Of a DNA stretch of 64,000 bases, positions 27,101 to 33,100 are shown in pieces (positions within the stretch are counted from its first letter, which is position 1; every line of letters begins with the position of its first letter). The notes under the pieces were generated by a model. That model worked only from the letters and a program-made list of their open reading frames with translations, ran no database searches and was not told the origin of the DNA. A program made the translations under genes and the position numbers. This DNA is from Tubiluchus corallicola (taxonomy: Eukaryota > Animalia > Priapulida), in assembly GCA_030141605.1 (NCBI GenBank), contig JAQGDQ010000004.1:558001-622000 (forward strand). Reading direction: 5' to 3'.

Positions 27101-30100
27101 AAAGAGTATAATTAAAGTGGTGTTCGTCTTTCCAAAAGGCTGCAATAATAGGAAAAAAATCTGAAAAGAGCAGCAGAAATGTGTTAACTGTTTGTAGTAA
27201 GACATGTTTGCATGCTCTGTTCACTTTTCAACTTCATACATAATTATTTTGGTCTCCAATTTCTGGATCTGTCACTAAATCTCTTAAAAGATGTTATCAA
27301 AGACAATAAGAATGATTTATTTTCATTAATTGGTTTTTCTTTTCTTTCTATTGAATGATTAATGGTGCTTCTTCATAAGACACTGCCTTCTTCTTTAGCT
27401 TGCCTATTGCGTTTAGCTAAAAGTTACGCAATTAAAAAGTGCATGTCTGCGAGCTCTCATTGAAAACAGTACATTACAAAACAATTACACAACTGTTTAA
27501 GCCCATATTATATTTAATTGCATATGTCTGCAAACTCTCATAGACTGCAGTTATATGCAGATTTTTCAATTTCTAGTTGAGTTATGAAAAATTGCAAGTT
27601 TGCGATAGACGCAAATAGGCCTAAGTTTCACGAATAAAAACGTTAATCCAGCAATTTTCAAAATATCAGAGTGGAGTTATTCAGAATAAAACTTGTGCCA
27701 TCAGAAATTTTGCTATTAGTTAGTATTAGCGTATTAGGCATAAACTGCAAATGTTTGTTACTAAGATTACTATCTTACAAGTTTGCCTGAATGCAATACA
27801 TAAACTAGCATTTGCAATAAGTGAATCACCGTGCAGTGCAATGTGTACATAGAAGAATGATATGCTCTGCCAAAGCAATAATTGAGATTAATTTTACTGA
27901 AGAAAAATCATTTCTGAGATAGAGAGAAAAAATCGTAGTGTTATAGACAAAACGTGTTTACCAAATAAACTATCATGGGTACAGCAACCACTCCAATAGA
28001 ACCTACAAGCTGACTGAATCCTAAACCTAAGCCTCGAAGTACAGTAGGGTATAGCTCAGCTGCCATTACATAAATGTCGACAAATGATGTGGATATACCA
28101 AATTTTCCAGTCATAGACAATGTAACAAGCAACCAAAGATGATGGCCACCTATAAACAAAAATCATGCCTTGTTGACTGCCTACTATTTTGCCTCATCTT
28201 GGCAATGCGTCCGTATTTAACTGGAATCTAATGAGCAGTGATTTCCAATATAGTGGCAATTTGGTAAATTCTAAAATTTCTTTAAAGAATCTTGTGTTCT
28301 CTTAAAAGGCACACTCAAGACCTATCACAGAAAAGCTGTTTAAATATCTAAATTGCAGATTTTATCTAACTGTTTTGCAAAAAATGCAAAACGCACTATC
28401 AGTCAATTAATTAGACTATTGTACACAACAGCTTTCTGCCATTAGGAACCTTTCATCATGAGGGTATGTATTCAATGTAACACAGGTTAAGAGCTACTTT
28501 TTGTATGTAATGAAATGGAAGAATTGTTTATCCTTACAACTAGACCAAAATGGTCCCGTAGGAACTTTTTAAATTTGCAAAAATGACAAAGGTCAACGAA
28601 TGGGCAAGGACATTGTAGTAGTGTGTTTTACGTAAAAGTATAAAGAACATAATCCGTAGAAAATCTGTGTAATGTGTATAAGCAAGGGTCATCTGAGCAA
28701 TCGTTATATAAGGCTGATGTATAAGGCTTTCAACCTCTAAGCAGGCTCTACTAGAAATGTACAAACTAAATATGATGTGTTTTAATATGAAGTAAAAAAA
28801 ACTAGTTTCGAGCTTTGCTAAAAATAATTTTAATATAAGATTGCTGAGAATAAGAAACACCAACAATTAATATTGAATCCAACACCAAGGCATAAGATAA
28901 AAGCAATGTAATAACCCATCACCTAAAATGAAGCATAACACAAATAAATAAACATAACAAATGCACACCACACGACTTAGAAATAAGGCTACAAAAATAA
29001 AAACAATGTGGTCCAATTTAAGCATAACTTTAGAAAGTCCTATAATTTACAACACTAGCCATTGAAAAAAATCTATATGTATATTTTACTCTTTGAGTAA
29101 TCACTGCATTTTGCCAAGTGTCTTCAATTACCTACATATTTGAATGTCAAGATTATCATTAATGATGGAAAACACTCACAATTAATTAAATTTTGATACC
29201 AAACTCAAAATACAGGAAATGTGAAAAGTTGAAACATTATTGGTTCAAATCTAAGTTCTAAAGTATGGATTTGAACCAGGGACTTTTGGCTTACAAGGCC
29301 GATGCCATAACCACTAGGCCACTATGTTTCCTGGTGACTATGACAGGCAGAATTCATCGCTTACAGCTAGTCAACCTTTTCAGCTTTCCAATGTTACAAT
29401 TAAATTCTAAAGCAAGTTTTATTCGAATTCTTTTCTGAATTATCCAGTTATAGTGTAAATAAAAAAAGCAAATTCATTCTATTCTGTTTTGCAAACACTT
29501 TGACTCTAAAAAAATAAATTTTAGCGACAGAGCTCCAAATCTAAATGACAAAACTACACAACAATCTCAGACGAATAGCGTTATAGAAAAACTCTTTACC
29601 AAGTAAACAACCATGGGCATAGCAATAACTCCAACAGCTCCCATAAGTTCACTCATTCCCATGCCTACCCCCCGTACTACTGTGGGATAAAGTTCAGCAG
29701 ACATAAGATAAATGTCGACAAATGATGTGGACACCCCAAATTTGCCAATCAAGGACAATGTAACAAGAACCCACAGAAAATTTTCACCTATAAAGAAAAA
29801 TGATACTCTAATGATTATAAGAAAAATAACAATTTAATTCGGCCATCAGAAAAGAAAAAAGTTTTAAATTAATTTTACTGAAATAAACTACATGTCGCCT
29901 GAATAATGCAGCAGAAATGAGAAACAAATACACATAATAAAATAGTTCTTAAAAAGTTGAAAACAACCAGAACATCTGACAAATTTGGATAAAACATTAG
30001 CAAAGCATTTGCAATGTGAAAAACTATGTAAAAATTAATAAATATACAGGGGCCTATTTTTTCCTGCAATTTTATGACACAAAGTTTAATAGCTAAAGAA

Positions 30101-33100
30101 AAATGCAGAAAAAGTTGTACTAAACTGCACATGAAATCAATCTAATAAATAACGAATTTAAAGCACAGCTTAATTCAAACAAAATGCCCATTACACTTAA
30201 AGTGTGGCAAAAATAGGTGCAAGGACCCTAGTCTATGATCACAAAAAGAGCAAGTTATACTCCTTGTGAGTATTGCCACTGGTACTGCATTTGCTACTAG
30301 CACATGTAACTTAATGTGATATGGCCACATTTCTGTGGTATTGAATCATATCATGTTTGCACAACTTTACAAACTCTAACTAGTGATCATCAGATCTGTA
30401 ATTTCTCATTTTTATTTTCGTTGCTAGGAAAAGAAATTTACATATGATACAATATCGAGCTCGCCCGAGTTTGCAGTGTTGAAACTATGCAACATACTAC
30501 AACATTAAATTATTACCCATTTTTCGTCATTTAGTGTATGATGTTTAGTCTATTATACAATTACAACTTTCCAAAATGGAAAACATCCACTGGCAAATGC
30601 AGTTATAGATAGCATAAGCGTATGAAAGAAAGATATCTTTACAATATTTTATAATCACATCCCCTGCATTTTTTCTTGTTGAATGGTAAAGTTGAAAAAA
30701 TCAGTATCTAATATGAGTCATCTTAACATGCCGTAAGTATACATGTCGTAAATTTGATAATTAAGTAAAATGCAACATGTGCCACAACCTAAGAATCAGG
30801 AAAACTAACAAAAAACCAAACAGAAAAACAAAAAATTAGACAAAATGAAGAAAATGCTAAATGAGAACCATGCTAAAAACAGGATCAGTTGTTTCTGAAA
30901 TTGTGCACGAAGATATAAGTGTATATCCCTAATATCCAAGTCTTACCAAGTATACTACAAATGGGCTTGCTATCGCACCGGCACTACCACAGAATTCACT
31001 AAATCCTATGCCAAGACCACGGACTACAGTTGGAAAAAGTTCACCCGCAAATAAGTAGATCATTACGTGTGATGTCGATATACCAAATTTGCCAATGATT
31101 GAAAGACTAATGATCCAATTAAGTTGTCCTGGCAATTGACAAACGTATGATGATTTTCAAATGATTTATATTAATTTCATGTGACATACTATGATAATTA
31201 TATAAATTTATTTACAGTAACAAAAAAGGTCAAGTCACTTGGATACATTTTGTTACAGCAATGATTATTATTAGCACTCTTCTTGTATCTTAAGAATAAC
31301 TTTTCTGAATTACTTCAGTTATATATCCTACTTATTGAACATTTGTGAAATCAGCACATGAAAGGTGGAATTTGACAAAAGAATTGAAAGTCAGTTGTAA
31401 TTACAGCATGTCAGTGACTGATAGTTAACGAAAACTAATAAATACACTCACAGGGACTTTTAAGCAGTAAATGGTCAATGCAGTGTAGTGAAAAATGTCA
31501 ATGTTTCAAATATCAACAAGCACAACTCAGTAAAAATTTTGTCCTGTTAATGGTTATCTAACAGTTTGAAACCTCAGCTGATGAAAAAGAAATGAAGATG
31601 TTTGCTAAAATTTGCAGCATTTCATAACTCTTCTTCACAACCAAAAAGAGAAAGCAAAAAATAAACATTGCAGCAAACGTCATGTATTAGTACCTCTTAC
31701 TGAAATTCTTAAATAATCAAATCCTGTTATCACATTTACTTAAACACTAATTATATCAATATCCCTAATATAATCTTTAGTTATATTACAATCCCTGATA
31801 TGTAACTGCATTTCATAAGCTTTCTCTCACACTATAGGTCAGCTCATGCCACCACTTTTTACAGCGGCGTAATGGTAATGCTGAAAACATCACTGGGATA
31901 AGCGACATGTGGTCTAATTTTTTTTACAATAACACAACTGTTCCAAGGAATATAATACATTTCTTAGAATCAATGCTTATTATTATTATCCACAAGCCTA
32001 AGATAAACTCTATCAGCTGTTTGTAGTAAACGAGAGAAATTGTTGGCTAAGGCATTAGTGAAAGAATTTTAATAAATTGACTAGGACTTTAGGAAGAATA
32101 GTGGCGCAAATCAAAATGTGAGAGTTGGAAAAAATTTCTGCCAAGGAGAACGAACCTAGATTTTGTGCTTTTGTGTACCAAAGACAGGAAATATAATTTA
32201 GTTAGTTATACATTAAATGCAGGTGTAACAGAAATATTACTTACTGTTTATATTATACAAAACATTACCACATAAATTCTGCATTATTTACATTATTATA
32301 ATTATGATAGAAGAAAAATAACCTTAACACTAACCAGCAGGAAGAAGCACAGTAACAGTACATGCTACACCTCCAAGTAACATTGATAAACAAAGAGGCC
32401 ACCGTCGTCCCCACCTAATGAAAAATCAACTATTATCAGAAGATAATAATTATTATTATTATTATAATTCTCTATTTAAAATTATACACATGTACAAATA
32501 TTTACACACAGTGACCCTCTATTTGCAGGGTATCAGGAGATAATGTGAATGTAAATAAATATTATGACTATCCTGCACTTTATGCTATGCTCTATCATGC
32601 ATACTAAATATTTAGTCTTATATAATTACAAAATGTTTAATTTTTTTGAATGTTGAATGGCAGCAACAATGATAATCTGAAGTATTCCCCCATACCAGTA
32701 CAAATATAAGCTTACACATAGCTTATACACTAAAACTATTACATATAAAAAACACAATGTCTACAAATAGATGAATTCGGCAATGTCAGTTAACCGATGG
32801 GTTCACCTAGCAATGACCAATCGCGAGCTCCTGTTATCTACTCCTAAATGGGTACACATTCTTCATGTTTTTTATGGTTTATTCAATAGACCCTTTTACA
32901 TTGTAGCCATTGTCAGCGAATAAAAGTTTATGAGACTGGGCCAGGTAACAGTACCAATCACGTGTGCCAATGCACATTTGTTCGACAAGCCTAGGAAAAT
33001 CACTATCGGCGGCACCATGCTAAGCAGTTAGAACAGCGTTGGCAGCAGACTCTATCTATAAACTACTGGGATACATTAAAACAAGTTAGCTTGCATCGCT

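Follow-up and report, generated by a model that had tools for sequence, protein, structure and literature searches.

Three tandem copies of a transmembrane exon form a probable mutually exclusive cassette in an SLC22 transporter gene of the priapulid Tubiluchus corallicola

We analysed a stretch of 64,000 nucleotides (the window) of the priapulid Tubiluchus corallicola (GenBank assembly GCA_030141605.1, contig JAQGDQ010000004.1, positions 558,001 to 622,000 of the forward strand), which bears on its minus strand a gene of the SLC22 (organic cation transporter) family. This gene is composed of ten single-copy exons and three tandem copies, named 9A, 9B and 9C, of the exon encoding transmembrane helices 10 and 11 (TM10-TM11). 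The copies probably constitute a three-way cassette from which each transcript takes one, and long-range RNA pairing probably biases the choice. It is very probable that at least two copies are used alternatively, and use of all three, which we infer, is likely. A two-way version was already present in the automated RefSeq annotation of Priapulus caudatus; the three copies and an 18-bp pair of complementary segments in the surrounding introns are new.

The gene was delineated by tblastn with homologous proteins. It extends from 43892 to 24135 and is the only SLC22 gene found (Table 1). Each copy of exon 9 is bounded by AG and GT, has no stop in the common frame, and is entered in phase 1 and left in phase 0; the original prediction had given three intact TM10-TM11 copies with these properties, and its coordinates were exact. 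It had also held that all other exons are single-copy. When the translations of the 12 exons modelled at that stage were searched against the whole window, the only extra copies were those among 9A, 9B and 9C (E about 1e-20 to 1e-28, tblastn/blastn); no other duplicated exon was found in the window, the best other tblastn match having an E value of 0.019. In pairwise comparisons the copies share between 34/56 and 42/59 amino acids and are thus too divergent to be an assembly duplicate. In addition, a DNA-like run (X1) has contigs that match the window without a difference over 9C (27754-28126) and with 1 difference over part of 9B and its intron (29679-29999). This run is perhaps the source sample and is therefore weak as an independent check on the triplication. 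An assembly artefact, previously judged unlikely, is ruled out by the divergence together with these contigs. The spacer introns measure 1159 nt (9A-9B) and 1450 nt (9B-9C), lengths that rule out steric exclusion, as had been argued from their approximate size. The donors of the three copies are of ordinary GTAA types, with no mixed U2/U12 sites.

The reading frame tolerates one copy at a time. Eight combinations of exon 9 were tested and only the three single-copy forms are open, giving, with the terminal exon at 24240-24135, proteins of 579 (9A), 581 (9B) and 581 (9C) amino acids. All five other combinations contain a premature stop upstream of the last exon junction, at a distance of 87 nt when no copy is included, 319 nt with any two and 507 nt with all three, which agrees with the earlier claim that skipping, doubling or tripling the exon breaks the frame. 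Transcripts containing zero, two or three copies would be subject to nonsense-mediated decay (NMD) or would encode a truncated protein.

Codon comparisons indicate that purifying selection acts on 9A, 9B and 9C. Using the NG86 method on 56 codons, the proportions of synonymous and nonsynonymous differences (pS/pN) were 0.69/0.27 for 9A-9B, 0.74/0.28 for 9A-9C and 0.49/0.15 for 9B-9C (Fisher p 5e-6, 3e-7 and 2e-5, respectively). The corresponding ratios of nonsynonymous to synonymous substitution rates (dN/dS) were about 0.18, 0.11 and 0.21, dS being near saturation in both pairs that include 9A. These values, far below 1, bear out the prediction of purifying selection on each copy. Over the 56 codons, 9B and 9C differ at 15 first, 1 second and 24 third positions. 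Polarised by 9A, second-position changes number 0/12 on the 9B branch (p 0.008) and 1/15 on the 9C branch (p 0.019); by their codons, both copies were constrained through most of their history. In a neutral-decay simulation, in which substitutions and not indels were modelled, frame and splice sites were retained in 12% of cases at 0.25 and in 3% at 0.5 substitutions per site. Both 9B and 9C have kept their AG/GT sites, and their pyrimidine tracts resemble those of the constitutive exons.

Transcription was assessed in one public RNA assembly (run X2), the contigs of which omit rare forms. Three canonical junctions were found, joining exon 4 to exon 5, exon 7 to exon 8 and 9A to exon 10. The last one (contig depth 59.5, CT..AC) skips 9B and 9C. 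Junctions between 9A and 9B or between 9B and 9C are not listed in this assembly, from which rare forms drop out; for the same reason the RNA demonstrates the use of 9A and says nothing about an absence of 9B or 9C, and the missing cover of 9B carries no evidential weight. A contig end at 32339, in exon 8, bears 29 additional letters whose placement is not listed. RNA support for the terminal exon 11 was not seen. All three differences listed inside 9A and 9C are synonymous. Between 25660 and 38675, run X2 departs from the window sequence at a few percent of exon positions and at about 9% of the positions in the one intron piece, which suggests that it derives from a divergent population, or from a close species under the same label.

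Alternative use of the same exon is annotated in a probable orthologue. A search with exon 1 gave 3 matches among 19 candidates, the best being P. caudatus XP_014665354.1 (62% identical), a protein named organic cation transporter protein-like. The P. caudatus gene is identical to the constitutive part at 325/511 residues (64%). In a midpoint-rooted tree of 34 sequences, picked from named and best single-domain matches, the Tubiluchus and Priapulus proteins are sisters with a support of 1.000, and from these comparisons they are probably orthologous. RefSeq holds two P. caudatus isoforms, X1 (XP_014665349-52, four accessions) and X2 (XP_014665354), which are identical save for residues 429-490. 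This segment is exactly exon 9, with the same boundaries and a length of 62 residues in X1 and 60 in X2. 9A resembles X2 in having 60 residues and the Gly/Phe of the motif GE(L/I)FPT; 9B and 9C resemble X1, with 62 residues and AELYPT. An exon tree of 56 columns and 17 rows, from which 4/16 outgroups were dropped because the anchor motif could not be located in them, grouped 9A with Priapulus X2 (89.4/78) and 9B with 9C (89.9/64). Independent duplication in each species was rejected by the approximately unbiased test (p 0.028), and the exon duplication is likely, judging from these sequences, to be older than the split between Tubiluchus and Priapulus.

These lines of evidence, namely the frame arithmetic, the selection on every copy, the junction from 9A to exon 10 and the two Priapulus isoforms, are the reason for which we favour mutually exclusive use. 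A wider reading, in which the cassette would be priapulid-wide, would predate the Priapulus split, would have expanded to three copies here and would let competing RNA pairing select modules for different substrates, is speculative and, taken as a whole, unlikely.

The gene product is an SLC22 transporter of the MFS type, as indicated by full-length sequence similarity: its best match in the Protein Data Bank is OCTN2 (E 1.7e-99), and the Priapulus proteins carry the Pfam domains Sugar_tr and MFS_1. When the exons of the window were searched singly, only 9C matched MFS_1, and weakly. The sister group of the priapulid pair (0.994) is a clade containing proteins that their sources label beta-alanine transporter or carcinine transporter-like; a 'carcinine transporter' of Anastrepha is placed elsewhere in the tree. 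We looked up 27 protein clusters, 16 of which have more than one member, and a swap of the TM10-TM11 exon was found only in Priapulus; none of the other 15 multi-member clusters, all non-priapulid, showed it (one lacking the segment and one partly compared). Adjacent copies of exon 9 within one protein were not found among 211 proteins scanned. Fragments from T. corallicola or a close relative were not found either among the longer matches (11 of 94 candidates) for a 9B query and among 24 of 34 candidates for a three-exon profile, the best having 31 identities in about 57.

Exon 9 is predicted to build part of the substrate pocket. 9A aligns to residues 427-485 of OCT1, 431-483 of OCTN2 and 425-475 of OAT1 in solved structures. 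According to extracts of PMC10567722 and 10.1101/2023.03.15.532610, OCT1 residues R439, I/F446 (in TM10), Q447 and D474 (in TM11) belong to the pocket or its charge network. In the alignment of 9A, 9B, 9C, Priapulus X1 and Priapulus X2, in this order, the equivalent of position 439 is K throughout; the others are H, F, F, F and F (446), V, V, V, V and T (447), M, D, D, V and L (448), E, E, Q, Q and E (470) and S, A, S, S and S (474). The Glu/Gln difference at 470 thus recurs between both Priapulus isoforms. Positions 448 and 470 presumably matter for the pocket too, 470 being about one helical turn from 474; position 470 is not mentioned in the same extracts. The copies likely change affinity or preference, to judge from these residues, and we rate measurable substrate differences among the three isoforms as somewhat probable.

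The introns of the cassette contain a candidate for the control of the choice. An 18-bp inverted repeat (30719-30702 / 26433-26416) is the longest perfect one between exons 8 and 10, the next best being 13 bp; repeats of at least 18 bp arose in 4/1000 dinucleotide shuffles. Its two arms, a candidate selector A and a candidate docking site, occur nowhere else in the window, even when up to 4 mismatches are allowed, and lie in bins of single-copy-like DNA depth (7.4 and 4.0, vs 32-197 in repeat bins). Among other tiles of the same size, 15/17 reach at most 15 bp. A second, weak candidate selector B follows 9B and pairs with the same docking site (Table 1). From sequence, we lean slightly towards a function for the 18-bp duplex; a true docking site for which two selectors compete is rather doubtful. 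The original prediction had attributed exclusivity to RNA pairing or NMD. A concrete pairing candidate now exists, and the docking function and the decay are our own interpretation.

Other repeats were noted in the same introns. A 29-nt inverted repeat (27450-27422 / 26478-26450, minus strand) was considered as a control element and set aside, since it has like copies at 4369-4414, 5416 and 27575-27603. One arm lies 16 nt from the candidate docking site, and its pairing would make the intron about 940 nt shorter; this duplex could have been co-opted. Just past the donors of 9B and 9C, a motif is common to 29599-29576 and 27961-27936 on the minus strand (4/100 shuffles, one of 18 comparisons, uncorrected) and is either a duplication remnant or a protein-binding site. 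A direct repeat of 23-24 nt is shared by intron 8 (31323-31300) and the 9B-9C intron (29452-29430), again on the minus strand (0/30 shuffles). A strong pairing partner was found for neither the post-donor motif nor the direct repeat. The Rfam scan gave a single hit, a tRNA-like fragment in the 9B-9C intron (29262-29323, minus strand, 32.6 bits) located in a bin of very high DNA depth, which is probably a tRNA-derived short interspersed nuclear element.

We propose the following model. The copies of exon 9 would be spliced singly, resulting in three proteins that differ only in the predicted pocket-lining stretch. When the selector after 9A pairs with the docking site ahead of exon 10, 9B and 9C would lie in the loop and 9A would be preferred, which agrees with the sole cassette junction seen in the RNA. 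The weaker partner after 9B would favour 9B, and the unpaired state 9C. Mis-spliced forms with none, two or three copies would be removed by NMD or give a truncated protein. The skipping of 9A might involve repression by proteins, or double forms might be removed by NMD, as the C. elegans clusters discussed below suggest by analogy.

Several observations weigh against this model. From the junctions that the original prediction implied, that from 9A to exon 10 was seen, but the RNA assembly lists none into or out of 9B or 9C, those to exon 10 included, and none from exon 8 to 9A; the contig over 9A and exon 10 continues without a break. The sole RNA contig over 9C (27852-28009, depth 3.3) is unspliced and passes from exon sequence straight into the intron that follows, where the 9C frame is stopped within 7 codons of the donor; the differences in this contig (1/48 in the exon vs 10/110 in the intron) do not contrast significantly (p 0.17). 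9B or 9C may have been released from constraint recently, no further back than ~0.1 substitutions per site. Independent duplication is not rejected by the Kishino-Hasegawa and Shimodaira-Hasegawa tests (p 0.22 and 0.49), and raw identity puts 9A nearer to Priapulus X1 (41/58) than to X2 (34/55). The Asp/Arg marking OCT1 474 / OAT1 466 is present in 0/5 priapulid exons, so that a switch between anions and cations is not indicated. As to the pairing, selector B is borderline, with equal or stronger pairs in 16/300 shuffles and 3/76 real chunks; long inverted repeats also exist in real DNA for unrelated reasons, 2/17 other tiles, which overlap, holding one of 23 bp (51047/51443); and the strongest duplex of the cassette region (29 nt, -36.5 kcal/mol) derives from a dispersed repeat. 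An upstream docking site was not found, the best pairs between intron 8 and the last 300 nt before 9B or 9C being within the shuffle range (7/40 and 29/40), and the model therefore leaves the skipping of 9A unexplained when 9B or 9C is chosen.

The most serious rival competes with the RNA-pairing step only and not with the cassette itself. Exclusivity might be achieved by splice-site competition, splicing proteins and NMD, and the 18-bp repeat might be due to chance or be a relic of a mobile element, which we regard as quite possible. It is consistent with the premature stop in every wrong combination, with the repeat-derived inverted repeats that the window does hold and with the lack of significance of selector B and of any upstream docking site. 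Extracts of PMC4165533 also report NMD-sensitive mis-spliced forms for 14/19 C. elegans clusters whose exons are not 3n long. On the other hand, the 18-mer pair is perfect, unique and of single-copy-like depth, and its layout is that of the 14-3-3, Mhc, MRP1 and Dscam exon 4 and 9 clusters, with the selector after the exon and the docking site after the cluster (extracts of PMC6071210 and PMC4691838).

The remaining rivals concern the copies themselves. Use of 9A with either 9B or 9C, the third copy being a recently abandoned spare, would fit the two annotated variants of Priapulus, the closer kinship of 9B and 9C to each other than to 9A, and the lack of any spliced 9B or 9C, recent loss being possible. 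We consider it improbable, since both branches have been constrained since their split at dS about 0.8 and both copies have AG/GT sites and constitutive-like pyrimidine tracts. Still less probable is a gene using 9A alone, with 9B and 9C as pseudo-exons or remnants of a partial gene duplication. 9A is indeed the sole copy with an RNA junction, but 9B and 9C show one second-position vs 24 third-position differences, no other exon is duplicated, and Priapulus X1, with four RefSeq transcripts, belongs to the same 62-residue AELYPT class as 9B and 9C. Finally, 9B or 9C might in part serve as an alternative last exon or in a retained-intron form, giving a truncated or decayed transcript with a regulatory role. 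The unspliced 9C contig and the stop shortly beyond its donor point in this direction, but its low depth is compatible with pre-mRNA or DNA carry-over, and the constraint across the whole exon and the intact donors of both copies argue for internal coding use; we find this explanation hardly credible. The cassette with one copy per transcript is retained as the best explanation.

Table 1. Exons of the SLC22 gene and candidate pairing elements (window coordinates)
Feature	Type	Position	Strand	Remarks
Exon 1	coding	43503..43892	-	ATG at 43892; TM1 and large extracellular loop
Exon 2	constitutive	42367..42470	-	
Exon 3	constitutive	39188..39342	-	
Exon 4	constitutive	38573..38741	-	RNA junction to exon 5
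Exon 5	constitutive	36850..36976	-	RNA junction from exon 4
Exon 6	constitutive	35872..35993	-	
Exon 7	constitutive	34882..35016	-	RNA junction to exon 8
Exon 8	constitutive	32335..32414	-	ends in phase 1
Exon 9A	alternative	30947..31128	-	182 nt; 60 codons; His at OCT1-446 position; GELFPT class; RNA-spliced to exon 10
Exon 9B	alternative	29600..29787	-	188 nt; 62 codons; Asp 448, Glu 470, Ala 474
Exon 9C	alternative	27962..28149	-	188 nt; 62 codons; Asp 448, Gln 470
Exon 10	constitutive	25624..25793	-	starts in phase 0; RNA junction from 9A
Exon 11	terminal coding	24135..24240	-	ends with TAG; AG acceptor, frame-compatible, tail length same as in Priapulus
Selector A	candidate	30702..30719	-	228 nt downstream of 9A donor; perfect 18-nt complement of candidate docking site; duplex -29.1 kcal/mol
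Docking site	candidate	26416..26433	-	intron after last copy; about 620 nt upstream of exon 10 acceptor
Selector B	weak candidate	28859..28883	-	after 9B; -19.0 kcal/mol with same docking site

Other genes and repeats were identified elsewhere in the window. A PIG-M mannosyltransferase is encoded by a single uninterrupted frame of 439 codons at 1752-3071 on the minus strand (Pfam E 1e-83). A gene with PB1 and PDZ domains (17866-20378, plus strand), which we take to be Par6-like, converges on the SLC22 gene, its end and the SLC22 stop lying about 3.8 kb apart, and the 3' untranslated regions of the two genes may overlap. Another neighbouring gene is, judging by its domains, presumably POLR2C. 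At 59022-60632 on the minus strand, a reverse-transcriptase frame resembling a long interspersed nuclear element, with one in-frame stop, adjoins exons of a ZMYND8/11-like gene. Nested inverted repeats at 50902-51590 (23 bp at 51047/51443 and 15 bp at 50902/51590) overlap a 139-codon frame that has no Pfam match, and this element is probably a DNA-transposon relic.

In drug transport, it is an open question how SLC22 proteins discriminate between their many substrates. Three interchangeable TM10-TM11 versions in an otherwise identical protein, with charge or polarity changes at 446, 448, 470 and 474, would offer a clean test of the contribution of these helices. If the priapulid-wide reading were true, the cassette would amount to a domain-swap experiment done by nature on the SLC22 pocket, with, given the relatives of the protein, beta-alanine, carcinine or histamine-like amines as possible substrates. 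The 18-bp pair lends itself to tests of long-range splicing control on a small scale, in an animal that is neither insect nor vertebrate, and, if functional, would be part of the first docking-site cluster found in a priapulid within the literature covered.

The original prediction knew of no cassette like this in SLC22. In the parts of the literature covered, we found no published tandem or mutually exclusive exon cassette for SLC22, organic cation transporters, MFS proteins or Priapulus (the Drosophila catalogues, which may bear on this, lie outside that scope), yet a two-way version stands without comment in Priapulus RefSeq. The human supplements of PMC8373072 and PMC5740500 contain SLC7A2 and SLC25A3 but have 0 matches for SLC22, and the main text of PMC9013439 has 0 matches as well; the supplements of PMC9741552 and PMC7954323 are uninformative on SLC22, positive-control genes being absent from them too. 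Exon swaps are well known, and those of tandem exons are overrepresented among genes for membrane transport (extracts of PMC9741552), which limits the surprise.

Among the closest known systems is the Priapulus caudatus gene, in which the same exon is swapped between isoforms of 62 and 60 residues; it has two annotated variants instead of three, rests on automated annotation, and no paper on it was found. Arthropod BalaT-like and carcinine-transporter-like SLC22 proteins and human OCT1, OCTN2 and OAT1 share the family and fold, OCT1 differing from the priapulid exons, which lack Asp/Arg at position 474. Homologous exons are swapped in other membrane transporters, namely human SLC7A2, SLC25A3 and SLC39A14 (supplements of PMC8373072 and PMC5740500) and C. 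elegans mrp-1 (exon 13A-D; extracts of PMC4165533), but these have other folds or belong to other families, and the mrp-1 exons are 3n long whereas those of Tubiluchus are 3n+2. Steric or U2/U12 exclusion requires short spacers or mixed sites, and the Tubiluchus cassette has neither; srp-type bidirectional clusters have an upstream docking site, and none was found here. In its arrangement the cassette resembles the insect 14-3-3zeta, Mhc, MRP1 and Dscam1 exon 4 and 9 clusters, with tandem homologous exons, long spacers, an element after a variable exon and its partner after the cluster. According to extracts of PMC6071210 and PMC4691838, the copy nearest to a downstream docking site is the default in such clusters. 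Their elements show conservation between species, each variable exon is served by a selector, and the effects of mutations have been tested, whereas the Tubiluchus cassette has one strong and one borderline pair, known from the sequence of one species.

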